Virus record (IMG/VR): IMGVR_UViG_3300032038_000603
Location: 1-25,218 of that record
Length of the DNA: 25,218 nt
Reading direction: 5' to 3' (one strand)
Source of the DNA: a virus
Below are positions 1 to 24,140 of the stretch, piece by piece (the first letter of the stretch is position 1; each line of letters begins with the position of its first letter). Under the pieces are notes generated by a model. It was given only the letters and a program-made list of their open reading frames with translations. It had not been told where the DNA came from and searched no databases. The position numbers were made by a program, and so were the translations under genes.

Positions 1-214
1 AAGACATTAAGTTGTTGACGTATTATGCTGGATTTATCACCGATCAACCTAATATGTCATTACAAGATGTTCAATCCTTACTAATGGAATGTTCTGATAA
101 TCAAATCGATTTATTAAATACGTATATTGATAAAAATTTATCTCTAAAATCTCCTTTAGAAATCGAGGAGCTATACACCAGAATCGTAGGAGAAATGGGT
201 ATAGCTCCTTCTGA
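1..214. repeat. Terminal direct repeat, copy 1 (equals 25005..25218)
   Basis: Read directly: 1-214 aligns base for base with 25005-25218. The only difference is T119 versus C25123. This implies a 25,004-bp circular or circularly permuted unit. Confidence 0.95.
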
Positions 215-425
215 TTTTTATCAGATGACAATACAAGATATTGATAATGCTTATGAAGGTTTTAAAAGAAGATTAGAAATTGATGCTAATATTTATTTAA
301 TCGCTTTACATAATAGAAATAATAAAAATGCTGATATTCGTTTTGTTGAAGATAAGGGTTATACTATTGGAAATTTTGAGGATAGGAAAGAAACATTCCA
401 AAAATTAAACATCAAGGAGGATTAG
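3..425 (+). CDS. Tail assembly chaperone-like protein, 5'-truncated by the window start (full gene starts at ATG 24917 and wraps; about 170 aa)
   Basis: The frame is open from the window edge. It is identical to the ORF that starts at 24917 by ATGA overlap with the major tail protein stop. It sits directly after the major tail gene. The C-half motif GIAPSDFYQMTIQDIDNAYEGF resembles the 'lG.sP.eFW.mTp.El' motif of gpT/GTA-type chaperone extensions. Confidence 0.6.
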   Translation, partial: DIKLLTYYAGFITDQPNMSLQDVQSLLMECSDNQIDLLNTYIDKNLSLKSPLEIEELYTRIVGEMGIAPSDFYQMTIQDIDNAYEGFKRRLEIDANIYLIALHNRNNKNADIRFVEDKGYTIGNFEDRKETFQKLNIKED

Positions 426-429
426 TCTT

Positions 430-660
430 ATGGCAATTAATGAGGATGTTCTCCAACACATTCATGAAAAACGTGCGGAGAATCCATATACACAACAAGT
501 GGGGTTTAGGCATAATGGAGGTAATGAACACATTGCCGATATTAATTCTTCTGATGCGGAATTAGAAGCTATTATGAATGAAACCTGGTTTTCAGAAGAA
601 GATGATGTTGAAATGGTTTCTAACCAATTAGCGCTACAAACCCAAAGAGGAGGCTATTGA
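430..660 (+). CDS. Hypothetical acidic 76-aa protein occupying the tape-measure position
   Basis: GGAGG at 416-420 lies upstream of ATG 430. Its stop TGA 658-660 overlaps the ATG 660 of the giant ORF. I recognise no family motif. Confidence 0.6.
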   Translation: MAINEDVLQHIHEKRAENPYTQQVGFRHNGGNEHIADINSSDAELEAIMNETWFSEEDDVEMVSNQLALQTQRGGY

Positions 661-1040
661 TGTTAATAAACAATATTGAATTAAGTAGTCTCGGCATCAA
701 GTTATATGATAGAGTCATTACAAGTAATCAGGTTAACACTAAAGAAGCATGGCTTGATGGTGATATACAGCCAACTCCAATTAGACAGCAAGATAGTTTT
801 AAAGATATCAGGCTGTCTTTTTTAGTATTAGGAAATGATGAAGATGATGCCTTTTTAAGAATTAGTAAATTAACTAGATTATTAAAAAAGGCAACTTTAA
901 AGTTTGATGATTTAGATTATTACTTTGATGTTAGTATGACTGGTAAAGCTGAACCTCAAAGATTAAAGAATGGTAATTTTGTAGTTGATTATAGTTTTAC
1001 TTCTGATTATGCAAAAGGTGAAAGAGAAATCTATACAACT
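660..1040 (+). other. Dit (distal tail protein) N-terminal belt-domain-like segment of the giant ORF
   Basis: The pattern KDIRLSFLVLGNDEDDAFLRISKLTRLLKKATLKFDDLDYYFDVSMTG...NFVVDYSFTSDYAKG mirrors the siphoviral Dit N-domain layout. Compare SPP1 gp19.1: RELEVDAIVFGD..LRRRIEYLNFLL..ITFSDEPSRTYYG..VTLNFYCQDPLKYG. Confidence 0.5.
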
Positions 1041-4000
1041 GATGCAAACTATACAAGTAGTTTTAAATTAACTATTTTATATTATCAGAATTCAACAACT
1101 CTATTATCAACAGATAGTATTACTGTTCGCGCAGCAATGTTTGAAGATACTGGTAATACATTTGCTTCTATAGGTATTGACGCAAATAAATATAGACCGA
1201 ATTATTATCAAGAAGGTATTGCTACAAATCTTGGTGGCAGAGAAATTACTTATGAAAACTTACAGTCATTAGGAACTCTTATTATTAATTATGCTCCTAT
1301 AGCTTATAATTTAACTATTAACTATTTTATGGACAATGGAACTGGTATTTACCAGGATATGTTTGTAAGTAATATACAATTTACATATCCGCAATTACAA
1401 AATATTCAGTCTATTGGACAGTTAGTAGATGTAAAAAGTTATAAACCAGAAGGTTATTTAGGAAGAATAGCTTTTACAGGAGCATTAACAGTTGAAAACT
1501 TATTAGCTGTAAGTCCAATTTATGTTTTCTATGATCAATTAGAGAACGATTTATCTAAAAGCATCACTGTCTCTTATTTAAAAGAAGACGATGATGGAAC
1601 TTATTCTACTGTTGGAGCTTTAACCAAAGTGTTTAAGCAAAGTGATTTCACTGATGGAATGACTCTTGGAGAAATTCTTAATGTAAATGCTTATAGACCA
1701 ACAGCCACTTATTATAATGAAGGTTATATTGAAGATCATAGTCTTACTGAATTAATTACATATGAAGATTTGAAAGTTAGTTATGAGATTAAATATGCTA
1801 AATCAACTAATATTGTATTTGTTGAATATTATGTTGGTGTATATCCAGGTTGGTATAGAGTATCTACAACCACACTTCGAACAGTATATAAAGAATCTTA
1901 TGAAGAAAGCTTTAGTCTTTCAGATATTAATTTAGATTTAAACAAATATCACACTTCAGAATATCAAAGTGGAGTTTTATATAATGGCAGTATCTATGAT
2001 AGTTATGATGCTGTTATTTCTGGTGGAGTATTACAGGTTTATTATGAACCAATTAACTATACAATCCAAGTTGGTTATTGGGTTCCAGAAGAAGAGCCTA
2101 TTGTAGAAGATGTTGTTATTAATGCTTTAGATTTTCTTGGAGATCCAGTATTAAGCGATATTATTCCAATAGCAAGTCATAGACCAGAAGGTTTCCAATT
2201 TGATGCTTTTCTTTCTTATGATGGACCTATTACTCTCGCGGGTTTGACTCAAGCTTCTCCAATTAATATTTACTATGAAGAAATAGTAGCTGCCCGCACA
2301 AAAAATATAATTTTAAAATACAAGCAAGAATTAGCTTCTACTTTTGCAACAATAAATACATCTATTATTACTATCAATGAAGCAGATACTATAAATGGTA
2401 TTAGACTTAAAGATGTATTTAATATGAATCTTTATAAGCCTGATTACTATGAAAATGGTATTTTAGATGGATACAGTTCAACTGCCCTTCTTAATTTTGA
2501 TGAAATTGAATCAGCTTATACCGTAGTTTATATGGCTTCTACTTTCATCACTCCAGTTAGATATTACACAGATGATGTAGATGATTTAAATTGGATTGGA
2601 AGTAGTTCAATATCCTATAAAGTTATTGATTTTACTATTGATACAACTTTATATGATTTAGGATTTAATATAAATGCTTATAAACCTAGTTATTGTGATG
2701 ATGGAGAACTTCAATATCATGGACCTATTAATTTTGAATCTTTAAGAAACTTAACAAGCCTAAATGTAGTTTATGAAACAATTATGGAGCCAGGTGGGGA
2801 TTTAGATTATCCACATAGATTCCTTTTCCTAGAGCACAATGATTTAGGTGATTATGAATACTTACATCCTAATTGGACAATGAACCATGCTTATATTAAT
2901 ACTGGAGTTTCAGTTGAAGATATGAGCAAATTAACCGTAGTTATGGAATGCGAACGTGTTGATAATGATGTTCCTTTACACAATGTTAATGCGGGCTTCG
3001 GTTATTTATTTGGTTCTCAATCTGCATTAGGATCTTACTATATGAGATTTAACAACCAGACACAGTATGGTGAGAATCTTACTGGAGTAAATACTTATGA
3101 AGCTCAAGCGGGTCTTTATTCTGATGCTTTGGTTCAGGCTGAAAGCTCTGCAATTGGTTTCTCTGCAAACTCTGGTATTTATGCTATTGAAAGACCAGGA
3201 TATTCTACTGCGGTCTTCACTTATAGCAACACAATGGCAAGCGAGGCCGCCCAAATGCCATATCCATTATATTTGTTCGCAAATAATAATGCTGGTCAAT
3301 ATGAGGAAGGTCTTGCTGGTATTGGTATTTATAGTTGTCGTATTTATTATAATGGAGCTTTGATTAGGGATTATATTCCAGTTCAATTCTATGATAAGAT
3401 TGGCGATCAAGTTGCTCCTTCAAATTGTTTGTATGATAAAATTACAGGCACTTTCTTTGAAGATGCTACTGGACAGAACAGTTTTAATATTAGAGACGAT
3501 GAAAGATATACAGATACTAATTTAGATCATAAGATCGGTCATTGTTATGTGAATTATTATAAGGGTGAAACTTTTATGCAAAATGTTGCTTATTATTTTA
3601 GAGCAAGTGATTTTGTAGATCAGATATTTGATCCTTATGAAAAATTCCAAATTGATTTATATCAACCATCATATTATAAATCTGGTGAAATTGTTAATGT
3701 TGAAAATTTAGTTTGGGATTTCGATAACATGAACAATGCTGTTTATACAGTCGTTTATCCAGAACAAGCAAATACAATTACAGTTAGATATTATACTGAA
3801 AATAGTGTTGGTGTTAGAACTCTTATCGAAGAGGAGACAATTGGAATATCTGAACAAGATTTCTATCAAGCTCCTACTTTTGGAGATATAGTTCGTATCA
3901 ATAAATATAAGCCAGAAGGATATGAAACTGATTTTGTATATCCTGGCACAAAAGTCTCTCTTACTAGAGTAGTTGATCATTCTCCTTATGAGATTGTTTA

Positions 4001-7000
4001 TAAAATTGCAGATAGAGAGCTTGAAACATATACAACAATAATTCGCTATATTAAAAAAGTTTATGGAATTAGAACTTATGAAACTATAGCTTCCGAAGTT
4101 TTAACCCTTGATGAAACTCAATTTAGAGATGGCGAATATATTGATTTTTATATAGATAAAAATCTTCATAAACCCGCTAATTTTTATAAAGATGGTGAGC
4201 CATATCAGTGGTATGAAATGGATGAGAAACTTGATACACCAAGCAAACTCAAAGAAATTTATACTATTGTATATCAAGTAGATACAACATATTTGGATGT
4301 AAATTATTATAAAAACTCTGTAAGCAGTGAAAATCTTATTGCTTCTACAACCTGGGGAATTAATATAGATGTTTTTGAACCAGGAATTCCAATTTATGTT
4401 TTAGATACTATTCCTAATGAATATATAAACAAGTATAAACCTTCAAATTGTAATGGTGGTCAAATACAAAATAGTTCTACTGCTTATCAAACATTTGCTG
4501 ACTTGGCCGCGATTGAAGAAATAGCTATAGTTTATGAAGAAACGACTCAACCGCACGATCCAGAATCTTTATCTTATGAACAAAAGGTTCTTTATTGGGG
4601 TGAAGTTAATGAGGAAGATTATTTTGATGATATTAATGGAAATACTCATTTCTATGGAGGAAGAATCCCTTATATTGATCTTGGGTATAAACCAAAAGAT
4701 TTAAGTAGATTAAGAGTTGAGTTAAAGGGTTATGCAAGACCTTGGGGTATTGGATCTAATACAGCTCAATATATGTATCAAGATTTAGGTTATACTTATT
4801 TCTTTGGATATTATGGTCCATTGGGTGAGTCTTATCTTGGCACTTCTGGAGCAAGTAGAGATGGTGTTGCAGCTTCTACTTCTGCTAATGGAACTCCAAG
4901 AGGTTCTGCGGTAAGTCCTTCTTCTTCTGGATGTTTTGGTTTTAGATGCAGAATTCCACAAGCTGGAGGATATGTATATTCAGCAGCTGGCCCGCAATCA
5001 ATTGATGGACAAACTTATTATAGAGCTGGAGATGGTATTGGAGTAATTTCTGGAGATCCACACCTTAAATACACAGGAATTGAAGCCGTTTATAGAAAAG
5101 GTAAATATAGTGATTATGATGATAATTATAATGTAATTAAAGGATTTAGTAATTATGGATTCACTAGGACAGACGAAGAAGATCTTCGTGAGATTATAAC
5201 AGACTTTGATCGTGTTCCAAATTGGTGTATTAATCGTGCTACTGGAGGAACTGATAGAATAAGAACTGCTTGCGGTAATCCTTATACAATAATTCTTGAT
5301 GCTTATAATAAATATGGGGCTGAATGGAGAGAAAGTGATAGTAATACTCCTACCACCTATATTTTTGATGAATCAGAAGACAATCCATTATTTGAAAATA
5401 TTTGTCAGCCTAAAGGAACATTATCATTATTCCAAACTACAAATCCAGATACTGGAAATGTGAATATAATGGCATTTAATCCAACAGTAATGCCTTTCCT
5501 TGGTAGTTCTAGTAGTTTAAACCTTTCTAACAACGCACTTGGTAATCCTTATGACAGAGACTTTTCAACTTCAGTCTCATATACAACTTGGGTAATAACA
5601 GGAACAAAGCAATCTTCTGAAGTAGAACAAGAGAAGCCGGGAACTATAGTTATGGAACAGAAGACTGAATCTAGGAATATTAATTATGCGACTTTCCCAG
5701 TGCCAGCTTTTCCTCAAATGACAGGTTGTGCTATTTGGGGCATTAAGATTTATGATCAAGATAGATTAGTAAGAAATCTTATCCCAGTGGCTCAAGGAGA
5801 TCAAGTATATGATTATGTAATGCCAGCTAATGGATTATTTGATCTGGTCACAGAGATCTTCTTTGGCAACTCAAATAAAGGTGGAACCTATACTTATGAT
5901 AGCTATTTAGCTCCTCAAACTGGAGGACCAGTTCATTCAGTTAGAACAATTGAAGCAAATGAGGTTTTACCTCTTAATTGTATCCTAGATCCTACAATTT
6001 TTGGTAAGACAATAGCTAATTATTATGATTATGATAATACATTTATTACAAATCAATTTGTAAATGTTCCTACTTGGTATAATAAAGCTAATGAAAATTT
6101 AGAAGATATTCTTCAATTCAATGATTATAAGCCTGATGATTTCCATCTTGATGGATTATTAGATTTAGATGTTGATTTAAGTTTCCAGAATATGTCTCTT
6201 GCAGATATTTATCTTATGGGAGCATTGAATATCTACTATAAATTAAGAAACTTTACCAAGACAGTTGTTTATTATAGAGATAATGTAAGAATAGGTTCAA
6301 GAGATATTTTCTATTCATTAGAAGATATTGAAAATGCTACTTCTTTAGCAGATCTTAATATTGATGTAGATTTATTCTACAATGAAGATTTTGCTCATGG
6401 TAGATTAGTGTTCGATGAATCAATAATTGAAAATGATGATATTGAAGCATTCATTGATGCTCCATCACCAATTGTTGTATATGATAAATTAACTAAACAA
6501 GAAGCTCCAAACTTATTGTATGTAGAATATTATAGACAAGGAGCTTATGATGATACATTAATTACAGTCAATGAAAATAGTCCTAACTATTTAGATTGTA
6601 ATTTAAGTGCGGTTGTATTAAATCCTAACGGAGCTATTAAATATTACAACCACTATCATACAGCCTTATATGAGGATGAAGATTATGATTACTTCATTCC
6701 TTATCAAGTGTATGTTAGAAATAAGTTTGCTGGTATCCATAGAGGCCCAGCCCGCAAGTTCCCTACTTTAGCTATGATTGTTGAAAATGACAATTATACA
6801 ATTATTGAAGAGAGAAATGGATGGGGTCGTCTTGATGAATACCAAGCAGGATGGATTTTATTAAATCAAACTGATCCTATTACAGGTCCAGGACAGAATC
6901 CAGATTATGATGTAGCTGATCAAGAGACGGCTACTATTCCTTTTGGATCTACCATTACCATAACCAAAATGACAATAGACAGATTATGGTGTTATTGTCC

Positions 7001-9503
7001 TGCTCAAGATAGCTGGATTAAGAATGAAGATATTTCATTTAACCAAGCTGGTAAGCTTTATAATGGATTAGGAATTGAGGTAATTCATTTAGATGAGATT
7101 AATTTCTCTAGTCCTACTTTAGATTCTATTGGAATTAATCCACAACAATATAAGTTAAGATTCCATGAACAAGCACAAGTTCCTATGCTTACTTTATCTT
7201 ATGCAAGTCTTTCAGATTTACATGAAATAGAGTTTGTATATCCTGAAACAATTTACAGTTATACTTGTAAATATTATCAGTATCAAGCAATTCCAGTTAA
7301 TCTTTTAGGCACGGCCGCATTTACTTGTTCTATTTCAGATTGGAATCCAGATTGGGAGAAATTCATAGAAACTTCTTGGCGGCAAGCTGAATTAATAGAT
7401 TATGGATATCTTCAAACTAAAAATACTGTAGATCCTCATTATTTAGTTGTTTATTCTGAATCAGATGATTCTTCAGCATCTGTAATTACTTATCCAACAG
7501 ACGGTAAAACTGTTTTAAGAATTACTGGGCCAATGACTCAACAATTTTATCCAGTGCAAAGTTGTGATAATGATTCAATTGTTGGTTATGTTAAAGCTAG
7601 AGATTCAGATTATTATCAATTAATTTCTGAATATGGAGGAACTATTACTGCTGATGTTGAACCAATTCTTTATAGAGATACAGAATTAGTATTAACTTGG
7701 GATTATTTTGGATTTGATAAAAACCTTTATAAACCATTAGGTTTTGGAGATGGTATTTATCTTTGGAATCCAAGACCTTGGAATAAAGATAATATTCAAT
7801 TTACATTTAATGAATTAGTTAGATGTGGAACACAATATGTTGTATATCCACCATTTGATCCTAATACTTATAAATTATGGAATCAACCTAATTATTTAGG
7901 AGTATATTATACTGTTTATCATACAGAAGGTTCTAACGAAATTAGGTATATTAAGAATCGTGGTATTAGTATTAATATGGCAGGAACATATGACTATTTT
8001 GAACCAGGAGAATATAGCGAACATAAAATTTATGACATTTATACTTCTGGGGAAATGACAAGACCATTTGTAAAAACAAGTGATACTTTAGACACTTCTG
8101 AAGATACATCTTACACTACTAGAACTTGGAATAGTGCATTATATTGGTATGATAATCGAGATGAATCTAATTCTCATACAACTGGTTATGTTCTTCCTTA
8201 TGTAGGAACTTGGGATTCAAGAAGTGGAAATATTCAAACTTTACTTGATAACCCAGAAATTGGAGATAGTTATTTTTATACATTCTCTAACTTTAGAAGT
8301 AGTCCTACTGTTGTTCTTGGTCTTGGTAATGAATATCTTAATAAAATTTCAAGATATTATTTACTTAAGAATATGAGCAGCACAATGTATGATGCAGATT
8401 GGCTTCGTATATATGATAATACTAATATTAACAGATACGCACTTGGTAAAGGTAGAGCAGATAAATATCTTATGACTGCAGATCCATATACCAATAATGT
8501 TATTCAAGGTGATAATGATTATGAACATTTAAGAGGTATTATTTATGACAATATAGCTTATGAGAACTTTATGATGATTCACTATTGGGTCCCAGTTCCA
8601 AAAGGTGTGAGATACAATTGGAATAATCAAGAAGAAAGAATCCCAGATAATGGATTATTTGATTTATTAACTGGTGATTTTGCTAGAAGCTATAGATTAA
8701 CCGATGGTGCTATTAAGCCTTATAGCGATTATCCTAATACTTTACAGCCAACTAGAGATGGTAATGATTTAATCTTCTTAAGAAATCAAACTGTTAATGA
8801 GAATAATGCATACAACTATTTTGCTAATAAAGAATTTGAGTATGAAACTATTAATACTATTTATCAAACAAATACGGCTGTTCAAACTTATAATTGGCCA
8901 GATACTTATGCAAATAGAATGTATAATCTTGCTCAATATACAGTTGTTCCAGGGACTAAATATGTTGATCCGCAAGCTAATTTGATTACAGGTAGTTGGG
9001 TGTTTGCTGGAAATCAATGGATTCCAGAGAATGCTTTAACTCCTGCTTCTGGAGATGTAGTTAATAGATTTACTTATACTAATGAAAAACAAACATTATG
9101 TTTAAGACCTACTCAATATGATAGCACTGTTAAAGCTTATCCAAATCCTGGTTATTTAAATGAAGATGGAGTTGATTATGGTTCTAATCCAATAGTAGTA
9201 GATTCTTATTGCACTTGTTATTCAACTTCTCTCCAAAGGGTTCAAGCTTACTTTATAGGAGATGGTTGGGTTTCTGCATCTCAAAGTCAAAACAGAGTGG
9301 TTGAAGATGGAACTAATTATGTAGTTGCAGTGAATACAAATTATTACCAGTATCCAATAGAGGATAATAATTACTTAATTGATCAATATCATTATGGTGA
9401 TAGAATTACCTCTATTCACACATTATATGCGGATAGTGATTGGATTTATACTGGTATAGGATGGATTAAGAAAACAGCTAATAACTTATCAATAGTTGAA
9501 TAA
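660..9503 (+). CDS. Giant (2947 aa) tail-tip adhesin-like protein: Dit N-domain-like head fused to MucBP-like repeats, three lectin/jelly-roll-like modules and SH3b-like domains
   Basis: The ORF is 8844 nt with no interruption. GGAGG at 649-653 lies 6 nt before ATG 660 (the track starts it at TTG 657). It is translationally coupled to the upstream ORF (TGATG). Domain calls come from motif reading, detailed in the sub-features. Confidence 0.9.
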   Translation: MLINNIELSSLGIKLYDRVITSNQVNTKEAWLDGDIQPTPIRQQDSFKDIRLSFLVLGNDEDDAFLRISKLTRLLKKATLKFDDLDYYFDVSMTGKAEPQRLKNGNFVVDYSFTSDYAKGEREIYTTDANYTSSFKLTILYYQNSTTLLSTDSITVRAAMFEDTGNTFASIGIDANKYRPNYYQEGIATNLGGREITYENLQSLGTLIINYAPIAYNLTINYFMDNGTGIYQDMFVSNIQFTYPQLQNIQSIGQLVDVKSYKPEGYLGRIAFTGALTVENLLAVSPIYVFYDQLENDLSKSITVSYLKEDDDGTYSTVGALTKVFKQSDFTDGMTLGEILNVNAYRPTATYYNEGYIEDHSLTELITYEDLKVSYEIKYAKSTNIVFVEYYVGVYPGWYRVSTTTLRTVYKESYEESFSLSDINLDLNKYHTSEYQSGVLYNGSIYDSYDAVISGGVLQVYYEPINYTIQVGYWVPEEEPIVEDVVINALDFLGDPVLSDIIPIASHRPEGFQFDAFLSYDGPITLAGLTQASPINIYYEEIVAARTKNIILKYKQELASTFATINTSIITINEADTINGIRLKDVFNMNLYKPDYYENGILDGYSSTALLNFDEIESAYTVVYMASTFITPVRYYTDDVDDLNWIGSSSISYKVIDFTIDTTLYDLGFNINAYKPSYCDDGELQYHGPINFESLRNLTSLNVVYETIMEPGGDLDYPHRFLFLEHNDLGDYEYLHPNWTMNHAYINTGVSVEDMSKLTVVMECERVDNDVPLHNVNAGFGYLFGSQSALGSYYMRFNNQTQYGENLTGVNTYEAQAGLYSDALVQAESSAIGFSANSGIYAIERPGYSTAVFTYSNTMASEAAQMPYPLYLFANNNAGQYEEGLAGIGIYSCRIYYNGALIRDYIPVQFYDKIGDQVAPSNCLYDKITGTFFEDATGQNSFNIRDDERYTDTNLDHKIGHCYVNYYKGETFMQNVAYYFRASDFVDQIFDPYEKFQIDLYQPSYYKSGEIVNVENLVWDFDNMNNAVYTVVYPEQANTITVRYYTENSVGVRTLIEEETIGISEQDFYQAPTFGDIVRINKYKPEGYETDFVYPGTKVSLTRVVDHSPYEIVYKIADRELETYTTIIRYIKKVYGIRTYETIASEVLTLDETQFRDGEYIDFYIDKNLHKPANFYKDGEPYQWYEMDEKLDTPSKLKEIYTIVYQVDTTYLDVNYYKNSVSSENLIASTTWGINIDVFEPGIPIYVLDTIPNEYINKYKPSNCNGGQIQNSSTAYQTFADLAAIEEIAIVYEETTQPHDPESLSYEQKVLYWGEVNEEDYFDDINGNTHFYGGRIPYIDLGYKPKDLSRLRVELKGYARPWGIGSNTAQYMYQDLGYTYFFGYYGPLGESYLGTSGASRDGVAASTSANGTPRGSAVSPSSSGCFGFRCRIPQAGGYVYSAAGPQSIDGQTYYRAGDGIGVISGDPHLKYTGIEAVYRKGKYSDYDDNYNVIKGFSNYGFTRTDEEDLREIITDFDRVPNWCINRATGGTDRIRTACGNPYTIILDAYNKYGAEWRESDSNTPTTYIFDESEDNPLFENICQPKGTLSLFQTTNPDTGNVNIMAFNPTVMPFLGSSSSLNLSNNALGNPYDRDFSTSVSYTTWVITGTKQSSEVEQEKPGTIVMEQKTESRNINYATFPVPAFPQMTGCAIWGIKIYDQDRLVRNLIPVAQGDQVYDYVMPANGLFDLVTEIFFGNSNKGGTYTYDSYLAPQTGGPVHSVRTIEANEVLPLNCILDPTIFGKTIANYYDYDNTFITNQFVNVPTWYNKANENLEDILQFNDYKPDDFHLDGLLDLDVDLSFQNMSLADIYLMGALNIYYKLRNFTKTVVYYRDNVRIGSRDIFYSLEDIENATSLADLNIDVDLFYNEDFAHGRLVFDESIIENDDIEAFIDAPSPIVVYDKLTKQEAPNLLYVEYYRQGAYDDTLITVNENSPNYLDCNLSAVVLNPNGAIKYYNHYHTALYEDEDYDYFIPYQVYVRNKFAGIHRGPARKFPTLAMIVENDNYTIIEERNGWGRLDEYQAGWILLNQTDPITGPGQNPDYDVADQETATIPFGSTITITKMTIDRLWCYCPAQDSWIKNEDISFNQAGKLYNGLGIEVIHLDEINFSSPTLDSIGINPQQYKLRFHEQAQVPMLTLSYASLSDLHEIEFVYPETIYSYTCKYYQYQAIPVNLLGTAAFTCSISDWNPDWEKFIETSWRQAELIDYGYLQTKNTVDPHYLVVYSESDDSSASVITYPTDGKTVLRITGPMTQQFYPVQSCDNDSIVGYVKARDSDYYQLISEYGGTITADVEPILYRDTELVLTWDYFGFDKNLYKPLGFGDGIYLWNPRPWNKDNIQFTFNELVRCGTQYVVYPPFDPNTYKLWNQPNYLGVYYTVYHTEGSNEIRYIKNRGISINMAGTYDYFEPGEYSEHKIYDIYTSGEMTRPFVKTSDTLDTSEDTSYTTRTWNSALYWYDNRDESNSHTTGYVLPYVGTWDSRSGNIQTLLDNPEIGDSYFYTFSNFRSSPTVVLGLGNEYLNKISRYYLLKNMSSTMYDADWLRIYDNTNINRYALGKGRADKYLMTADPYTNNVIQGDNDYEHLRGIIYDNIAYENFMMIHYWVPVPKGVRYNWNNQEERIPDNGLFDLLTGDFARSYRLTDGAIKPYSDYPNTLQPTRDGNDLIFLRNQTVNENNAYNYFANKEFEYETINTIYQTNTAVQTYNWPDTYANRMYNLAQYTVVPGTKYVDPQANLITGSWVFAGNQWIPENALTPASGDVVNRFTYTNEKQTLCLRPTQYDSTVKAYPNPGYLNEDGVDYGSNPIVVDSYCTCYSTSLQRVQAYFIGDGWVSASQSQNRVVEDGTNYVVAVNTNYYQYPIEDNNYLIDQYHYGDRITSIHTLYADSDWIYTGIGWIKKTANNLSIVE
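1060..2790 (+). repeat. Array A: seven tandem ~77-85-codon beta-rich repeats (MucBP-like), each carrying a Y(K/R/H)P..(Y/F) motif
   Basis: The motif Tyr/His codons fall at 1191, 1440, 1692, 1947, 2178, 2433 and 2679. The motifs are KYRPNYY, SYKPEGY, AYRPTATYY, KYHTSEY, SHRPEGF, LYKPDYY and AYKPSYC. Each repeat is flanked by V.Y / I.YY strand-like motifs. The copies are diverged at the nucleotide level. Confidence 0.7.
2800..3500 (+). other. Module J1: lectin/jelly-roll-like domain ending in ...LYLFANNNAG..IGIYSCRIYYNGALIRDYIPV...CLYDKITGTFFEDATGQNSF
   Basis: Its C-terminal signature (LFa.n....iy..kIy..g.l(I/V)R(D/N)(Y/L)IPV....G(L)(Y/F)D..t..FF.n.g) is shared with J2 and J3. I recall the signature from uncharacterised phage tail-associated proteins but cannot name the family. 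Confidence 0.4.
3540..4545 (+). repeat. Array B: four more MucBP-like repeats (LYQPSYY, KYKPEGY, LHKPANFY, KYKPSNC)
   Basis: It has the same Y(K/Q)P motif and V.YY strand pattern as array A, read from the translation. Confidence 0.65.
4590..5920 (+). other. Module J2: second lectin/jelly-roll-like domain with a large Gly/Ser-rich insertion
   Basis: It starts YWGEVNEEDYFDDINGNTHFYGGRIPYIDLGYKP and ends CAIWGIKIYDQDRLVRNLIPVAQGDQVYDYVMPANGLFDLVTEIFFGNSNKGGTY. The end is parallel to the J1 C-terminal signature. Confidence 0.4.
6010..6700 (+). repeat. Array C: about three degenerate copies of the same repeat (DYKPDDF plus weaker copies)
   Basis: The strand motifs IANYYDYD, KTVVYYRDN and LLYVEYYRQG recur at repeat spacing. 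Only the first copy retains a clear YKP motif. Confidence 0.4.
6708..7040 (+). other. Two SH3b-like domains inside the giant ORF
   Basis: VYVRNKFAGIHRGPARKFPTLAMIVENDNYTIIEERNGWGRLDEYQAGWILLN is a typical bacterial SH3 pattern (G.W..v....GW(I/V)). A weaker second copy follows: TITITKMTIDRLWCYCPAQDSWIKNEDI. Confidence 0.5.
7930..8710 (+). other. Module J3: third, more diverged copy of the J-type module
   Basis: It ends ...IIYDNIAYENFMMIHYWVPVPKGVRYNWNNQEERIPDNGLFDLLTGDFARSY. It shares the PV....NGLFDL.T..F signature with J2. The start boundary is uncertain. Confidence 0.3.
8925..9490 (+). other. C-terminal triplet of SH3-like / cell-wall-binding-like units
   Basis: Three units each end in an aromatic-Gly-Trp motif: GSWVFAGNQWIPENAL, YFIGDGWVSASQS and WIYTGIGWIKKTANNL. 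Confidence 0.35.
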
Positions 9504-9514
9504 GGGAGGCAAAT

Positions 9515-9865
9515 ATGGAGAATTATTATCCAATTGAATTCGATAATAATGGTAGCAGTTTCACTATCACAAATAATGGAACTGCTCCAGCTCCTTGCCT
9601 GATAACTTTTATACCTCAAGTAGATTTCATCACTCTTTCCATTACTGGATTGAGTGATGAACCTATAGAGGTAAGTGGAATTCGAGCTAATGATGTCTTG
9701 GTCATTGATGGAGAGAATAGACAAGTCCTTCTCAATGATCAAGATTATTTTAGCCATTATAATGGTTGGGAATTCCCAAAGTTGCAGCCAGGAGTGAATG
9801 AAATTAGAATCCCTAGTGGATCATTGGCTAATATTCAAATAGAATATAATGCGAGGTATATCTAA
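9515..9865 (+). CDS. Dit C-terminal-domain-like protein (116 aa)
   Basis: GGGAGG lies upstream of ATG 9515. The sequence FTITNNGTAPAPCLITF...ITGLSDEPIEVSG.RANDVLVIDGENRQVLLNDQD...FPKLQPGVNEIRIP...IQIEYNARYI matches the siphoviral Dit/Sipho_tail C-half pattern (N.G....P.i.i......gd.l.iD......v.lng......f..L.pG.N.i......i.y...y). Confidence 0.55.
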   Translation: MENYYPIEFDNNGSSFTITNNGTAPAPCLITFIPQVDFITLSITGLSDEPIEVSGIRANDVLVIDGENRQVLLNDQDYFSHYNGWEFPKLQPGVNEIRIPSGSLANIQIEYNARYI

Positions 9866-10896
9866 TGTTCAAAATATATGATACTAATAAGCATTTTCTT
9901 ATGCTTTTAGATTCCTGCCAAGATATTCATACTATTGAACAATTAGCCACAGGGACAAGAAACCTAGAGTTTTATGCCCCAGTTAATGACATAAATTTAG
10001 CCAATTTAGTAGAGGAAAACTACCTCGAGACCGCAGATTATAGCTACATAATTAAAGAAGTGATAATGAATGATAATTCCTTCTTTAAGGTATTTTGTAT
10101 AGCTAATTATGAAGAATTGGCTGGAATCAATTTTGAAGTATTCGATTTATATAGATTAAACCTACAACAAGGTTATGAATATTGTATAAGCCAAGCTCCA
10201 GAATGGTCTATTGATTATAGAAGTGGGAATAGGACAATGATTACTTATCAAGAACCTAATAAGTCAGGTTTTGAGATGATCAAGACCATTGCCGCAGATA
10301 ACAATCAAGAGCTTTGGTTTGATACAAAAAATAAGAAGGTGATTATTTACGATCAAGGTCAAATGGGGAAAGAGATTGGAACTTATTATTCAAACGAATT
10401 GAAGCTCCAACAATTATCCAAACAATCATCTTCTTATGAATATTGCACTGTCCTCTATCCTTATGGAAAAGACGGACTTAATATATCTTCAGTTAATGGA
10501 GGAAAGAAATATCTTACTAATAACATATACACAAACAAATACATCGAGAAGGTATGGGTCGATGAGAAGTATGAGTATGCTGAAGATTTAAAGAAGGCTG
10601 CTGAAATGTATCTTGAAGAACTTGCACAGCCTAAATGTAGTTATAAGTTAAAGCTTTCTTCTATTGGCGATGAAGTTCAATTAGGAGATACCATTTTCCT
10701 AGTTGATAAACTCAAGAGGATTAAACAAAAGCAGAGAGTTGTTAAGATAGTAAGATATCCAAAGCAACCTGAAAAATCTGTAATTGAAATATCTAACTTG
10801 AGATTAGATTTTACTACAACATATTTAAAAAACCAGGAAAAGATAAAACAAGATATAGATTACATAAAGAAGCAAATTGATTTGTTGAGACAATAA
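9865..10896 (+). CDS. Tail-associated (Tal) N-terminal gp27-like baseplate hub protein / phage minor structural protein N-terminal region (343 aa, short form)
   Basis: It has an ATG/TAA overlap with the upstream ORF and sits immediately after the Dit-like gene. The sequence MFKIYDTNKHFLMLLDS...TGTRNLEFYAP...YIIKEV... fits the prophage-tail N-terminal family pattern. Confidence 0.6.
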   Translation: MFKIYDTNKHFLMLLDSCQDIHTIEQLATGTRNLEFYAPVNDINLANLVEENYLETADYSYIIKEVIMNDNSFFKVFCIANYEELAGINFEVFDLYRLNLQQGYEYCISQAPEWSIDYRSGNRTMITYQEPNKSGFEMIKTIAADNNQELWFDTKNKKVIIYDQGQMGKEIGTYYSNELKLQQLSKQSSSYEYCTVLYPYGKDGLNISSVNGGKKYLTNNIYTNKYIEKVWVDEKYEYAEDLKKAAEMYLEELAQPKCSYKLKLSSIGDEVQLGDTIFLVDKLKRIKQKQRVVKIVRYPKQPEKSVIEISNLRLDFTTTYLKNQEKIKQDIDYIKKQIDLLRQ

Positions 10897-10979
10897 ATCT
10901 ATTGAAAATGCTTAAAATTTAAGGGCTTTCGTCTTGAGTCAGAGGTTTAATTTTTGCGCTGGTCTCCAACCCTTTTGTA

Positions 10980-10988
10980 TGCTATAAT
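10980..10988 (+). promoter_or_regulatory. Extended -10 promoter candidate (TGcTATAAT) reading toward attP and the integrase
   Basis: TGCTATAAT is read at 10980-10988. I see no good -35 element. Confidence 0.3.
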
Positions 10989-11071
10989 GCCTAGAGTCAA
11001 GAGGTCATAGTCCTAAATCAGTCAAGCTGTCTTGTTGATTTTAAAGATATTAAAGATAGATTGGTGGGTAG

Positions 11072-11121
11072 TTTGACTGGCAGTCAGGAGGTCACGAGTT
11101 CGAGCCTCGTACGCTCCACCA
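11072..11121 (+). other. 3' portion of a tRNA-Ala(GGC)-like gene (anticodon arm to CCA): putative attP core, not a complete tRNA
   Basis: The parts are: anticodon stem TTTGA/TCAGG (two G-U pairs), loop CTGGCAG (U33, GGC, A37), variable AGGTC, T-arm ACGAG-TTCGAGC-CTCGT, acceptor 3' strand ACGCTCC with U70, discriminator A, and CCA. No D-arm and no matching 5' acceptor strand lie upstream. A tmRNA 3' end (also ...CTCCACCA) is an alternative reading. Confidence 0.6.
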
Positions 11122-11202
11122 CCTAGTATTTTCAATACTTTATTGAGGTTAAAGACCTCTTGACTAGAAGCTTATTTATAAGGAGTCAGGAGGTCTTTAA
11201 TT

Positions 11203-12099
11203 ATGATTACAATGAAACCAGTATCAAAATCCATTGAAGAAACTTTTGAAGATTTTATTAATTCTAAAAGAGCAAATGGAATAAGGAATAAAACTCTTCA
11301 GACGTATTCTCAGCAATTCCATACAATTAGCAAGGAATTAACTGTAGAAAAGCAAATTGAAGAGCTTTCCAAAAAAGATTTAGAGAATGTAATTTTAGCC
11401 TTGAGAAATAGAGGATTATCCCCCAATTCTATTCGAAGTTATACTGCAACTTTACAATCTTTTTTGTCTTGGTGTAATGATGAAGGTCTAACAGATCTTA
11501 AAATCAAAAAATATAAAGGCCAAGAGTCAATCAAAACAACTTACACAAACGAAGAACTTGTTAAACTTTTAAAGAGACCCGATCGGAAATCCTGTACATT
11601 TTGTGAATATAGAAATTGGGTCATCATCAACTTATTGCTTAATTCTGGTTGTAGAGCTGCTACTATTCGTAATATAAGAATTCAAGATATCAATTTGGAT
11701 GAAGGAATTATTAGTTACAGACATACAAAGAATGGTTCTTCTCAAATTGTGCCTTTGTGCCAGGAGATGAAGAAAATATTGAAAGATTATTTAAAAGTAA
11801 GAGGAGGTTCTCAAACTGATTTTCTCTTTCCAAAAGAGAATGAAGAACAAATGACAGAGAACGGTTTATCTGAAGCCATTCGAAGATATAACAGAAAAAG
11901 AGGCGTTGAAAAAACTTCAATTCATTTGTTTAGACATTCATTTGCGGAAAGGTATCTTAGGGCAGGCGGAAACGCATTTGATTTACAAAGAATTTTGGGT
12001 CACTCGACTCTAGATATGACAAAGCACTATTGCCGCATTTACGATACTGAATTAATGAAAAATTATGATTCTTTATCTCCTTTACAGAGATTGGTTTAA
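11203..12099 (+). CDS. int: Tyrosine recombinase / phage integrase
   Basis: GGAGG at 11189-11193 precedes the start. An N-terminal SAM-like domain is present (TLQTYSQQF...IRSYTATLQSFLSW). The catalytic pattern is R (CRAATIRNI), H-x-x-R (HLFRHSF) and H...Y (LGHSTLDMTKHY). Confidence 0.9.
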   Translation: MITMKPVSKSIEETFEDFINSKRANGIRNKTLQTYSQQFHTISKELTVEKQIEELSKKDLENVILALRNRGLSPNSIRSYTATLQSFLSWCNDEGLTDLKIKKYKGQESIKTTYTNEELVKLLKRPDRKSCTFCEYRNWVIINLLLNSGCRAATIRNIRIQDINLDEGIISYRHTKNGSSQIVPLCQEMKKILKDYLKVRGGSQTDFLFPKENEEQMTENGLSEAIRRYNRKRGVEKTSIHLFRHSFAERYLRAGGNAFDLQRILGHSTLDMTKHYCRIYDTELMKNYDSLSPLQRLV

Positions 12100-12102
12100 A
12101 AA

Positions 12103-12137
12103 AGACCCAGCTTTGATTAGCTGGGTCTTTTTTTTTT
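12103..12137. terminator. Bidirectional rho-independent terminator between the integrase and the minus-strand gene
   Basis: Stem AGACCCAGC (12103-12111) pairs with GCTGGGTCT (12120-12128). An A-run lies upstream and a T-run at 12128-12137. Confidence 0.8.
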
Positions 12138-12324
12138 ATTGCCTAGTGTGCAGGTATTTATCTGTATCAGACATTGCTATTTCGAATGACTTCTGGATGA
12201 GATCGAGAGGTTTAACTTTCTCACCTCCCATCTTGGTGATGAGTTCATTTTGCTTATCAATAATTTTGAAATAGTTCTTTGGGACTGTGATAATGTTGGT
12301 ATCAAGATCGAGTGTAATTTTCAT
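12136..12324 (-). CDS. Hypothetical 62-aa protein, the only minus-strand gene (candidate regulator or excision factor)
   Basis: On the minus strand, AAAGGAGG lies 7-8 nt before the ATG. The gene has its own sigma70-like promoter and a palindromic operator. I recognise no family motif. Confidence 0.65.
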   Translation of the reverse strand: MKITLDLDTNIITVPKNYFKIIDKQNELITKMGGEKVKPLDLIQKSFEIAMSDTDKYLHTRQ

Positions 12325-12345
12325 TTGGTTAACCTCCTTTGTGAA

Positions 12346-12363
12346 TTAATATAATTATATTAA
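12346..12363. promoter_or_regulatory. Perfect 18-bp palindrome TTAATATAATTATATTAA overlapping the -10 of the minus-strand promoter (operator candidate)
   Basis: Read directly: TTAATATAA is the reverse complement of TTATATTAA. Confidence 0.6.
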
Positions 12364-12385
12364 CTCTTTTTTGTGTGTAGTGCAA
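12357..12385 (-). promoter_or_regulatory. Sigma70-like promoter for the 62-aa gene (TTGCAC-17-TAATAT on the minus strand)
   Basis: The -35 is the reverse complement of 12380-12385 and the -10 is the reverse complement of 12357-12362. The spacer is 17 nt. Confidence 0.6.
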
Positions 12386-12435
12386 TAGTTGCGGTTTAGG
12401 CCCGATCGGTTTGTTTGGATAAAGCGAACGGTTGT

Positions 12436-12464
12436 TTGATTTTCAAAAAAATTTTTTGTATAAT
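12436..12464 (+). promoter_or_regulatory. Near-consensus sigma70 promoter TTGATT-17-TATAAT
   Basis: TTGATT is at 12436-12441 and TATAAT at 12459-12464, with a 17-nt spacer. The first 21 nt are identical to 17476-17496. Confidence 0.7.
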
Positions 12465-12470
12465 AATAAT

Positions 12471-12695
12471 GAGAAAGCAAATAAAAACTCCTTTCATCTC
12501 ATAGAATATAAAAATAATTTCCTTTCTCAAAGGACAAATTCCTTTAAAAAACTTAACCTGATTTTTATTATTATATGAGAGCAAATGTGCTATTTTTTAA
12601 GAGCCAAATTTGTCTAAACATCTTTAAAAAGACATTGTGGTTATCTTCCTTTTAACTCCGGGGTTGAACTCTTTATGGGTTCAACTCTTTTTTTT
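12471..12695 (+). ncRNA. Candidate ~220-nt non-coding transcript (promoter to terminator; no ORF with an RBS; four CU-rich UCCUUU motifs)
   Basis: It is bounded by the 12436 promoter and the 12660-12695 terminator. Only unsupported mini-ORFs lie inside. CCTTT(C) motifs occur at about 12489, 12521, 12541 and 12643. Both ends are inferred. Confidence 0.4.
12660..12695 (+). terminator. Rho-independent terminator
   Basis: Stem GGGGTTGAAC pairs with GTTCAACTCT (7 Watson-Crick pairs plus G-U pairs) around a 9-nt loop. A run of T follows to 12695. Confidence 0.6.
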
Positions 12696-12815
12696 ATCTA
12701 AAAATTTTTCTAATTTTTTGGACAAAACTAATTTGGCGATCTTTTTCAATTTTCAAAATCTAATGAGGGGGAAGATTTTCTAAAAAATTTTTTTTTGAAA
12801 AGGAGAAAAAGACAA

Positions 12816-13316
12816 ATGTTAAAAGATATTAAAGGTTATGAAGGTTTATATGCTGTTACTGAAGAAGGACAGGTGTGGAGTTATAGAAAACAAAAGTTTT
12901 TAAAACCTTGGGATGATTCTCATGGTTATTTAAAAGTAGGATTAGTTGTAAATTATCATAAAGATCAAAGACGAGTACATAGATTGGTTTTAGAAACTTT
13001 TAATCCAGTAGAAGGAATGGAAAATCTTGAAGTTAATCATCTCGATGAAGATAAAACTAATAATAAATTAACCAATCTTTCTTGGAGCACTAGATTAGAA
13101 AATGTTAGACATGGCACTGGAATTCAAAGATCAGCACTTACAAGAAGTAAACCAGTAGCGCAATTAACTAAACAGGGAGAAATAATTGCAACTTACCCTT
13201 CTATTAGTGAAGCTGCTAGACAGACTGGGGCAAAAAAAGCAAGAATTTCAATGTGTTGTAATGGAAAAGCAATATCAACACACGGATATAAATGGAGGTT
13301 TATAGATGGAAAATAA
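12816..13316 (+). CDS. NUMOD4/HNH_3 homing endonuclease with a C-terminal helix-turn-helix (HTH, NUMOD1/IENR-like) motif
   Basis: AGGAG at 12801-12805 precedes ATG 12816 (the track starts at TTG 12795). The motifs are IKGYEGLYAVTEEGQVWS (NUMOD4), VHRLVLETF...VNHLDEDKTNNKLTNLSWSTRLEN (HNH) and YPSISEAARQTG...GYKWRF. Confidence 0.85.
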   Translation: MLKDIKGYEGLYAVTEEGQVWSYRKQKFLKPWDDSHGYLKVGLVVNYHKDQRRVHRLVLETFNPVEGMENLEVNHLDEDKTNNKLTNLSWSTRLENVRHGTGIQRSALTRSKPVAQLTKQGEIIATYPSISEAARQTGAKKARISMCCNGKAISTHGYKWRFIDGK

Positions 13317-13488
13317 ATATTTAAGAAAAACTCTTGGAATGAAATGCACACAAGAATTTTATGACATAGTTTGTGAATATGTCCAAGAGAGAGGGATGAC
13401 TGTCTCTAATTTAATTCGCAAGGCTCTTAAAGAAACTTATAATCTTGAAGAAAAAGCTGAAATTAAAAAAGGAAAGAAATCAAATTAA
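13306..13488 (+). CDS. Small ribbon-helix-helix (CopG/Arc-like) protein
   Basis: GGAGG lies upstream, and the start overlaps the HNH gene end. The beta-strand then helix pattern ends in MTVSNLIRKALKETY. Confidence 0.45.
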   Translation: MENKYLRKTLGMKCTQEFYDIVCEYVQERGMTVSNLIRKALKETYNLEEKAEIKKGKKSN

Positions 13489-13526
13489 TCAGAATAGAGC
13501 GGGCTAGGTTCTAAGCACTATTTGTC

Positions 13527-13555
13527 AGACACTGTAAGACTGTGTCTTTTTTTTT
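13527..13555 (+). terminator. Rho-independent terminator
   Basis: Stem AGACAC (13527-13532) pairs with GTGTCT (13542-13547), followed by a run of T. Confidence 0.55.
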
Positions 13556-13734
13556 CAGAAAAAATAATTTTTGATAAGTTGGACAAAGTTAATTAAAGTA
13601 AATGTCCTAATTTTTATATATAAAGAGCAGTTGGGGGAAGGGTCTATATCGGTCTTTTTAAACACTTCGCTTCGCTCGTGTTTAAAAATCCCTCTTTAAA
13701 AACTTTTCCTTAGCTCGCAACCAAAAGGAGAAGA

Positions 13735-14184
13735 ATGTATAATAAAAAAGTTTATAAAGCACAATTAGATGCTATAGAGGCTTCTGCTCCTGGAAAGTAT
13801 GATTGTGCAGGAATATATTCTATCTCTATTGGAGGGAAATTAGTTTATATAGGTAAGTCTAATGATGTAAAAACAAGAATTGCTTTTCATATAATGAACT
13901 TAACAGATCAATCAATAAGAGATTCTCACTCACACAAGTATGATGTAATAAGAGAGGCTGTTGGAAGAAAAATAATTGTTGAGTTTGACTTATTATACAA
14001 AGCTAAAGAGATAGATAAAGAAAAGATTCAAGAAGAAATTGGTATTAAAGAAGGAGAATTAATACGAAAATATATGCCTCCTTTAAATTATCAAATACCA
14101 AAAGAAAAAAATTATAAAAGATATACAGTACAAAAAACTGCAAAAACAATTACTTTAGATGAGATTATGGACGATTCTAAATAA
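13735..14184 (+). CDS. GIY-YIG nuclease (free-standing homing-endonuclease-like, catalytic domain only)
   Basis: AAGGAG lies upstream. The motifs are GIYSISIGGKLVYIGKSNDVKTRIAFH (GIY...YIG...R) and EGELIRKYMPPLNYQ (E...N). Confidence 0.8.
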   Translation: MYNKKVYKAQLDAIEASAPGKYDCAGIYSISIGGKLVYIGKSNDVKTRIAFHIMNLTDQSIRDSHSHKYDVIREAVGRKIIVEFDLLYKAKEIDKEKIQEEIGIKEGELIRKYMPPLNYQIPKEKNYKRYTVQKTAKTITLDEIMDDSK

Positions 14185-14244
14185 TTTCGCAGGATTTTTT
14201 TTTATTACTAAATGGAGACCAGTATTAACAAAGGAGGGTTGATT

Positions 14245-21067: not shown

Positions 21068-21397
21068 ATGCTTATATATGATAAAGAAACCAAGGCTATG
21101 AGTATTGTAGCAAAAGATACTGGTAGTTTTGGTTTTATATTAAACAACTATCAATTAGATGAAGGTGATGTAGTTTACTTTACTGTTAATACAGAATTAG
21201 AAAATGAAGATCCCAAGATTCAAAAGATAGTTAATAGTTTTCAAGATCATAAGGCTTTAATTCAGTTATCTAGTGCAGATACAGATATTCCAGTAGGAAA
21301 ATATTACTATGATATTCAAGTTAATACTGCGGATGGTCGTGTAGATACTATAGTTGGGCCTTATAAATTTAAAGTATTGGGGGGTGTAACATACTAA
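21068..21397 (+). CDS. Ig-like / BppU-N-like small structural protein (possible fibre anchor)
   Basis: GGAGG lies upstream. GDVVYFTV...IPVGKYYYDIQVNTADGRVDTIVGPYKFKV resembles Ig-like phage fibre-attachment domains. Confidence 0.4.
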   Translation: MLIYDKETKAMSIVAKDTGSFGFILNNYQLDEGDVVYFTVNTELENEDPKIQKIVNSFQDHKALIQLSSADTDIPVGKYYYDIQVNTADGRVDTIVGPYKFKVLGGVTY

Positions 21398-21398
21398 T

Positions 21399-23942: not shown

Positions 23943-24140
23943 ATGAATGATAGAATTTTTAGATTTGAGGCTCCAGAAGGAAAGCTTTATGACTGGGCAG
24001 AGCCTCGTTTTGCTTATATAAAAGATAAAGATGGGAATGAAACTCAAGAACAAGAACATCTTTATGCTAAGTATTTATGTTTGGGTCAGTTTGATCTTAT
24101 AGATAATTATATTTTAGTAGATGCTCCTCAGGAGGGGTAA
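23943..24140 (+). CDS. Hypothetical 65-aa protein
   Basis: GGGG lies upstream of the ATG. The gene is tightly packed between connector genes. Confidence 0.5.
   Translation: MNDRIFRFEAPEGKLYDWAEPRFAYIKDKDGNETQEQEHLYAKYLCLGQFDLIDNYILVDAPQEG

Follow-up and report, generated by a model that had tools for sequence, protein, structure and literature searches.

In the tail modules of siphoviruses of Gram-positive bacteria, as represented by phages phi8074-B1, SPP1, TP901-1 and 80alpha, the genes follow one another in the order tube protein, chaperone G/GT, tape measure, Dit and Tal. The tape measure starts tube assembly, sets tail length and helps DNA across the cell envelope; further jobs are to fill the tube lumen behind the DNA end and to provide hydrophobic segments for membrane crossing. 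To our knowledge, the tape measure is treated as universal and indispensable in long-tailed phages. Here we describe the tail module of an uncultured phage, IMG/VR record IMGVR_UViG_3300032038_000603, the whole of which (25,218 nucleotides, nt) is referred to as the window. Its tail genes form a module of siphovirus type in which no tape measure can be recognised. The order and families of its head-tail adaptor, tail completion protein, terminator, tube protein, Dit domains and Tal are those of the canonical module. The window departs from that module in that the chaperone gene is a single open reading frame (ORF) of 170 amino acids (aa) with no frameshift partner to make up a G/GT pair, Dit is distributed over two genes with ~2,800 aa added, and the tail completion protein has almost double the length usual for its kind.

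The nearest cultured relative is Clostridium phage phi8074-B1 (TerL 49% and major tail protein 35% identical), which encodes a 732-aa tape measure of family PF10145, unlike the window, which has none. Podovirus tails (phi29, T7 and P22) likewise contain no tape measure, and in these phages other virion proteins penetrate the membrane; the hydrophobic loops of phi29 gp9, for example, act in membrane penetration. In contrast to podoviruses, the window keeps a siphovirus tube protein, terminator, tail completion protein, chaperone-like gene, Dit and Tal. It also differs from satellites of the cf-PICI (capsid-forming phage-inducible chromosomal island) type, which encode capsid and packaging functions and no tail genes, whereas the window has the standard tail genes bar the tape measure. 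Our literature searches on siphophages without a tape measure found no relevant description.

The original prediction, made from the sequence alone, had proposed a siphovirus-type module with no recognisable tape measure, and profile searches bore this out. Every ORF of at least 60 aa was scanned with Pfam and/or PHROGs, except TerL, which was named by tblastn, and none of the scanned window ORFs matched a tape measure family. The giant 2,947-aa protein described below, searched in ten overlapping chunks of ~350 aa, gave no relevant match in Pfam or PHROGs. As a positive control, the same Pfam library found the phi8074-B1 tape measure through PF10145 at E = 6.9e-46. The empty scans agree with the further proposal that no other ORF in the unit has the look of a tape measure. 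The slot between the chaperone-like gene and Dit was said to hold only an acidic 76-aa ORF, and the gene boundaries at 425, 430 and 660 confirm this. There is no room for a hidden gene, with 4 nt between the chaperone-like gene and the 76-aa ORF and an overlap between the 76-aa ORF and the giant gene. A check of the ORFs for transmembrane (TM) segments, which the prediction had recommended, found TM-like stretches in two of them only, a doubtful 69-aa ORF and the tail completion protein (residues 145-178), and thus in neither the 76-aa ORF nor the giant.

Two ways of reading a longer protein from this region were tried and rejected. To join the chaperone-like gene to the 76-aa ORF by frameshifting, ribosomes would have to slip by +1 inside a stretch of 15 nt, the downstream frame being open only from base 409; there is no slippery site, and the 76-aa ORF has its own ribosome-binding site. 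Under alternative genetic codes, TGA read as Trp lengthens the 76-aa ORF by 2 codons and TAG read as Gln lengthens the chaperone-like gene by 5, and no long protein results.

The genes around the slot were identified as tail genes. The major tail protein matches Phage_tail_2 (E = 8.4e-20, profile positions 2-131 of 132) and PHROG 1407 (E = 2.7e-28), and is 35-41% identical to annotated major tail proteins of Bacillus, Geobacillus and Clostridium phages. The gene for the C-terminal domain of Dit (PF22768, E = 2.5e-11; PHROG 33, Dit, E = 2.1e-21) has its own ribosome-binding site and stays at 115-134 aa in relatives. Tal matches Prophage_tail (PF06605, E = 7.3e-33), shares 93% identity with the Tal of relative L001, and is 27-30% identical to the Tal regions of phages equipped with tape measures. 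Tube protein, Dit ring and Tal hub, terminator and tail completion protein, the parts by which a siphovirus-type tail is recognised, are all present. The predicted order of major tail protein, chaperone-like gene, 76-aa ORF, giant, Dit C-terminal gene and Tal stood with small corrections, the start of the giant gene moving from TTG 657 to the likely ATG 660, because every homologue begins MLIN. Fusion of the giant to the Dit C-terminal gene by readthrough or frameshifting was considered and discarded: the two genes lie in different frames with a TAA between them, and the second has a ribosome-binding site of its own.

The layout is shared by a whole clade. We found at least 209 homologues of the giant protein; they measure 2,830-3,030 aa throughout and, with few exceptions, lie on contigs that reach 24-27 kb in their longest version. 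Sequence upstream of the giant gene was available for 29 relatives from IMG/VR, ENA and Logan, 27 of them distinct (L027 and L031 repeat L017 and L012). In 28 of the 29, the stop of the tube gene and the start of the giant gene are 466-909 nt apart; within the clade, tube proteins are 35-77% identical. The remaining relative, L013 (IMGVR_UViG_3300031992_000423; 9491-10001), has 111 nt of non-coding sequence between the two genes. Neither a chaperone-like gene nor the small ORF was found in the 23.8 kb of L013 examined (1.8 kb of the contig lay outside), and a six-frame translation searched with the hidden Markov model of the chaperone-like family, filters off, gave a best match of only E = 0.41. 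Proteins identical to the window's chaperone-like protein and tail completion protein are also recorded in ENA. In more distant phages, with ~27% Tal identity, ordinary tape measures (1,121 and 1,228 aa) precede a Dit of ~230 aa; the loss of the tape measure is therefore specific to the clade. A megablast search with the whole genome found no match in the phage collection, and two scans of species-representative genomes (185,579 genomes) found no integrated copies. The 47,438-bp Hadza gut contig NODE_2152 (L038/L040) was considered as a prophage and rejected: its genes occur twice, ~23.7 kb apart, and it consists of two copies of a 23.7-kb clade genome joined head to tail, with no host DNA around a prophage.

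The chaperone-like gene starts at an ATG (24917) that overlaps the stop of the tube gene, and its product matches a 170-aa homologue in L001. It consists of a ~70-aa N-terminal part, dispensable in some relatives, and a conserved C-terminal domain of ~100 aa. The window copy gave no above-threshold match in Pfam, PHROG or NCBIfam. When 15 family members were scanned one by one against Pfam, six gave sub-threshold matches to Phage_TAC_6 (best E = 0.007) on the C-terminal motif LYxxAVGExGISPxDFYxMTPxExxLAY, and three to Phage_TAC_12 (best E = 0.05), one of the two matches seen in detail lying on the N-terminal IxIDGKxYxFKFGL. Matches on these two motifs keep the expected N-to-C order. From these repeated, colinear, sub-threshold matches, the protein can be read as a chaperone with two fused parts. 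Alignment of the family with hhalign to gp12 and gp13 of phi8074-B1 and to chaperones of the Phage_TAC_19 type was not significant, and profile searches of PDB sequences with the chaperone and Dit N-terminal alignments returned nothing. When the chaperone profile was run with HMMER against 1.84 billion representative proteins, it gave 120 matches, all of 213 aa or less; judged by these searches, the family is restricted to the clade and has no link to other families. The N-terminal part is gone in L004/L028, L005, L011/L037 and L020, and the whole gene in L013. Ratios of non-synonymous to synonymous substitution rates (dN/dS) were 0.10-0.41 for the chaperone-like gene, as against 0.02-0.10 for the N-terminal domain of Dit. 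The pattern resembles that of a chaperone decaying step by step after its client vanished, as would be expected once a tape measure had been lost.

A Shine-Dalgarno sequence of its own (AAGGAGG) precedes the 76-aa ORF, whose product has a net charge of -11 and no match in Pfam, PHROG or NCBIfam. Homologues of 45-80 aa (median 66) occur at the same position in 22 relatives. The family is rich in Ser, Thr, Asn and Gln, low in complexity and net acidic in 20 of the 22, with no hydrophobic segment and no TM-like window. Between the window and L001, the small ORF is 34% identical, the chaperone-like protein 69% and the giant 84%. The sole conserved part is a C-terminal motif of ~14 residues, (L/M)(L/M)NxIGLE(V/I)QRxGG. 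In relatives as well as in the window, the codons for its RGG(N)Y end (640-660) double as the AGGAGG Shine-Dalgarno sequence of the giant gene, and part of the apparent protein conservation of the small ORF is therefore that of a translation signal. By the Nei-Gojobori method, dN/dS of the small ORF was 0.04-0.75 and below 1 in all 13 pairs; by this measure the gene is real and its constraint relaxed. Three bona fide tape measures, taken as controls, were net basic, and their C-termini show no resemblance to that of the small ORF. Neither the length of a tape measure, nor its basic charge with hydrophobic or Gly-rich segments, nor a family match was found in the 76-aa ORF. From these features and its absence in L013, we do not regard its product as a tape measure; docking of its C-terminal motif at Dit or Tal is possible.

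The giant protein likewise lacks the look of a tape measure. Its composition is rich in Tyr, Thr, Asp and Asn; the most helix-prone 60-aa stretch, with 48% helix-forming residues, falls inside the Dit-like N-terminal domain. It contains no TM-like segment, and the window copy has no Pfam or PHROG match. The gene makes up ~35% of the genome. An AlphaFold2 model of residues 1-300, built from a 14-sequence alignment, had a mean confidence (pLDDT, predicted local distance difference test) of 79. Foldseek matched its first ~125 residues to the monocin tip (9j1k_K, E = 2.5e-4), the TP901-1 baseplate (4v96, 8e-4), the 80alpha baseplate (6v8i_AC, 2e-3) and a virion chain of a gene transfer agent. The repeats that follow resemble ubiquitin-like beta-grasp folds, and SH3_3 is present in some homologues. 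The models suggest that a Dit ring domain (~1-125) is followed in the giant by ~2,800 aa of repeats and domains rich in beta structure, which presumably serve as an adhesin or bind a receptor. With a Dit ring and beta-grasp repeats at the N-terminus, the bulk of the protein would be expected to lie outside the tube. Dit is split in the window, with the ring domain in the giant (660-9503) and the galectin-like domain as a separate gene (9515-9865). In combining a Dit ring with added binding modules it is like the 'evolved' Dits of lactococcal and lactobacillus phages, which bear carbohydrate-binding insertions, and unlike them in that the addition is some ten times larger and follows directly on the ring domain, and the galectin-like domain is a separate gene.

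A further departure lies in the tail completion protein, which matches PHROG 5 at E = 3.9e-8. Its matches to TIGR01725 (E = 3.4e-5) and PF04883 (E = 0.005) fall short of the curated cut-offs, and PF04883 is precomputed for many of its homologues. At the PHROG/TIGRFAM level it belongs with 80alpha gp51, SPP1 gp16.1, HK97 gp10 and lambda gpZ and occupies the same place upstream of the terminator. Unlike these proteins, it adds a C-terminal stretch of ~100 aa with a predicted long helix and a hydrophobic segment. Homologues in the clade measure 173-225 aa, compared to 114 aa for the gp10-like protein of phi8074-B1. Conserved among clade members, the extension runs from an acidic helix through Gly-rich, hydrophobic and again Gly-rich parts to a VIIT-type end, the hydrophobic segment being FPxLVNxYGIMD with an invariant Pro. 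AlphaFold2 (25 sequences, pLDDT 77) predicted one unbroken helix of 85 residues (97-181), or ~12.7 nm at 1.5 Å per residue; Foldseek searches of the model against PDB and BFVD gave no significant match. Tube rings rise ~4 nm each in lambda, SPP1 and T5, and at that rise the predicted helix would be about as long as a stack of three. The tail completion protein of 80alpha, gp51, sits as a monomer in the neck lumen, where it caps the DNA end and binds the N-termini of the tape measure; it has ~115 modelled residues and a C-terminal helix of only 29 Å (bioRxiv 10.1101/2024.12.10.627806). SPP1 particles without gp16.1 eject their DNA outside the cell, and gp16.1 routes the DNA into the cytoplasm (PMC11099176). 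On the model, we infer that the extension of the clade protein may occupy the lumen in place of the tape measure and supply a membrane-active segment.

The explanation that we favor, and consider somewhat more probable than its rivals taken together, is that the tape measure was genuinely lost in a clade of ~25-kb uncultured phages with a ruler-free, probably very short tail. What the data show is that the gene is absent, that its absence is conserved in the clade, what its neighbours encode, and that the tail completion protein is extended; the short tail and the role of this extension are inferred. In such a phage, the tail completion protein, terminator, tube protein, a degenerating chaperone, a split and expanded Dit, and Tal would have been retained, and, with no ruler, the tail would grow from a Tal-Dit hub. 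On the simplest reading, the tube would comprise only a few rings between the Dit ring and the terminator. The particle, derived from a siphovirus, would look like a podovirus and bear a baseplate of ~2 MDa from six copies of the 2,947-aa Dit-adhesin. Lumen plug and membrane roles would most plausibly have passed to the tail completion protein, and the 76-aa acidic protein would be an accessory or vestigial factor and not a ruler. That the remaining tail genes are intact and constrained, as seen in the low dN/dS of the Dit N-terminal domain and in the conservation of the tube protein, is consistent with this proposal. Several points weigh against it. No particle has been seen. Most members retain both a chaperone-like gene and the small ORF, and purifying selection acts on the two, which hints that a tape-measure-like client may survive. 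Without a ruler, tube length could be unregulated instead of short. No replication or lysis genes were recognised, and the phage may depend on a helper. As for the tail completion protein, the family assignment rests on matches that are sub-threshold or at the PHROG level, the model is without a significant structural match, and the hydrophobic part of the extension is absent in L005, L011 and L014.

The original prediction had offered three explanations for the empty slot, none of which gains direct support from our data, and the extension of the tail completion protein is a candidate outside them. A bolder version of the latter, tentative and on balance unlikely, makes its helix a built-in ruler and plug acting from the opposite end of the tail, setting a tube of ~3 rings and being ejected ahead of the DNA as a membrane conduit. 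If true, tail length would be fixed and DNA delivered by a mechanism that is new, and the clade would be a living intermediate between siphovirus and podovirus architectures. We give slightly less credence to the 76-aa ORF as an ultra-short tape measure, in which 45-80 residues at 1.5 Å each (7-12 nm) would set two to three rings. The ORF does occupy the exact slot between the chaperone-like gene and Dit, has homologues in 22 relatives with dN/dS below 1 in all pairs, is accompanied by a retained chaperone-like protein, and ends in a motif that could dock in Dit or Tal, as the C-termini of tape measures do. The proposal is weakened by the protein's polar, low-complexity character and the missing hydrophobic segment, by its divergence next to a well-conserved giant, by its absence in L013, and by a motif that ends in the next gene's Shine-Dalgarno sequence and has no likeness to tape measure C-termini. 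Its acidity in nearly all relatives is opposed to the net basic controls and to the tape measure of 80alpha, whose positive charge suits an acidic lumen (bioRxiv 10.1101/2024.12.10.627806).

Dependence of the particle on another element appears improbable. The phage would then be a helper-dependent, satellite-like element, with the tape measure, and perhaps replication and lysis functions, coming from a co-resident phage or from the host. The presence of an integrase and a non-structural region of ~3.3 kb with no recognised replication or endolysin genes would fit such a lifestyle. An imported tape measure must, however, fit the phage's own tube, chaperone, Dit and Tal, all of which are encoded here and conserved, and loss of the chaperone in some lineages speaks against an imported client. 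The clade is large and found as free ~25-kb genomes in many samples, hundreds of which carry a complete conserved set of virion genes, and the scans of species-representative genomes returned no integrated copy. If the clade is that of the Topaz phages (see below), it is relevant that, in the available text describing these, a Topaz phage is reported to replicate actively at ~50-fold coverage (Borges et al., bioRxiv 10.1101/2021.08.26.457843). Still harder to accept is that the giant protein takes over the role of the tape measure, as an internal or external ruler. It adjoins the empty slot, its N-terminus is part of the tail-tip ring, and it is long enough for any tail. This is offset by its beta-rich composition, with at most 48% helix-forming residues in any 60-aa window and no TM-like segment or helical stretch, by the Dit-like N-terminus, and by repeats that fold as beta-grasp domains typical of surface adhesins, with SH3 in homologues. 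Insertions in evolved Dits project outward, and the segment after the Dit ring domain should do the same. As to an assembly artefact in which a tape measure gene was collapsed or deleted between 425 and 660, the unusual layout invites the thought and nothing beyond it does. The same layout in the 29 relatives (27 distinct), from different samples and assemblers, rules it out for practical purposes, and the ENA records of identical proteins and the tight junctions, with overlapping stop and start codons and normal ribosome-binding sites, argue the same way.

The clade is large and widespread, and it keeps the rest of the siphovirus tail toolkit after loss of the tape measure. If the loss is confirmed, these phages would be a natural experiment on how tube assembly proceeds and growth stops without a ruler, would show which proteins assume the plug and membrane roles, and could represent an evolutionary intermediate from long-tailed to short-tailed phages. 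They also call for caution with annotation pipelines in which finding a tape measure counts towards the completeness or the morphotype assigned to a phage.

The window is one complete genome, circular or terminally redundant: bases 1-214 are identical (100%) to 25005-25218, which gives a complete unit of 25,004 bp with a terminal overlap of 214 nt. The coding fraction of this unit is ~95% and its widest gap 306 nt; GC content is ~32%, the cumulative GC skew climbs monotonically, and all credible genes lie on the + strand. The gene map, drawn from searches of Pfam, PHROG and NCBIfam/TIGRFAM families, is given in the table.

Gene map of the window, with the family or other evidence for each assignment
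Feature	Coordinates	Strand	Family or evidence
Integrase	11203-12099	+	PF00589, E = 3.8e-32
HNH/NUMOD endonuclease	12795-13316	+	
60-aa regulator	13306-13488	+	
GIY-YIG-like protein (weak)	13735-14184	+	
TerS	from 14212	+	
TerL	from 14844	+	tblastn
SPP1-type portal	from 16100	+	
MuF-like protein	from 17863	+	
Scaffold	from 18846	+	
Capsid protein	from 19439	+	
Head-tail adaptor	from 20457	+	
100-aa ORF	from 20750	+	
Three beta-rich ORFs without family (109, 257, 380 aa)	21068-23311	+	
Tail completion protein, HK97 gp10-like / Neck1, 201 aa	23324..23929	+	PHROG 5, TIGR01725, PF04883
Conserved 65-aa ORF, between tail completion protein and terminator	23943..24140	+	
Tail terminator, 139 aa	24143..24562	+	Tail_completion_gp17, E = 2.3e-5; PHROG 176, E = 3.5e-8
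Major tail (tube) protein, 129 aa	24531..24920	+	Phage_tail_2, PHROG 1407
Chaperone-like gene, 170 aa	24917..25004 then 1..425 (5' part runs into terminal repeat)	+	
76-aa acidic ORF	430..660	+	own ribosome-binding site
Giant protein, 2,947 aa	660..9503	+	predicted Dit-type N-terminal ring domain (AlphaFold2 and Foldseek)
Dit C-terminal (galectin-like) domain, separate 116-aa gene	9515..9865	+	PF22768, PHROG 33
Tal (tail hub), 343 aa, hub domains only	9865..10896	+	Prophage_tail (PF06605)

The non-structural region (10897-14211) comprises only ~3.3 kb, and family searches of the window ORFs recognised no replication gene or endolysin in it or elsewhere. The sole holin-like candidate is the doubtful 69-aa ORF (12065-12274), which overlaps the end of the integrase gene. 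An HNH/NUMOD4 endonuclease gene shortly upstream of TerS is shared by the window, L004 and L005 and may encode a terminase-associated HNH enzyme instead of a homing endonuclease. Between the 100-aa ORF and the tail completion protein, the gene set at 21068-23311 is variable: the counterpart region of L004 (4056-6314) encodes a 752-aa collagen-repeat protein, and it is the counterpart of the middle unassigned ORF that bears the collagen repeats. These beta-rich genes may encode neck or head fibres. Versions of the 65-aa protein with motifs in common (60-67 aa) occur in L004, L005 and L038, and the protein has no family match in Pfam, PHROG or NCBIfam.

Matched by published description only, the clade is probably that of the Topaz phages of Borges et al. 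As far as the available text of that study describes them, Topaz phages have genomes of 22 +/- 3 kb, TAG recoding, a TAG-free integrase and unidirectional GC skew, and include a 23.7-kb Oscillospiraceae prophage; clades mixing genetic codes are reported as well (bioRxiv 10.1101/2021.08.26.457843). At 25,004 bp and with an integrase of PF00589, the window fits the published genome size of ~22 +/- 3 kb and the presence of an integrase. Genome size, TAG recoding in L004 and L005, the TAG-free integrase, GC skew and gut metagenome origin are all points of likeness to that description. Unlike the recoded Topaz phages, the window is read with the standard code and lacks in-frame TAG. The available text of the Topaz paper mentions neither the lack of a tape measure nor a giant Dit (bioRxiv 10.1101/2021.08.26.457843).

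The giant genes of L004 (9858-18959) and L005 (8317-17058) contain 30 and 23 in-frame TAG codons, respectively, and their TerL genes 11-12. TAG in the giant gene of relatives aligns with Gln-37 of the window's giant protein, and by this alignment L004 and L005 are read as recoded from TAG to Gln. The window and L001 have zero in-frame TAG in any gene, the window's sole TAG stop being at 423-425. No tRNA genes were found in the window, L001, L004 or L005. The integrase is mobile within the clade: it is not recognisable in L005, follows Tal in the window, and lies in L004 on the - strand (6546-7484) within the structural module, between a fibre gene and the tail completion protein gene.

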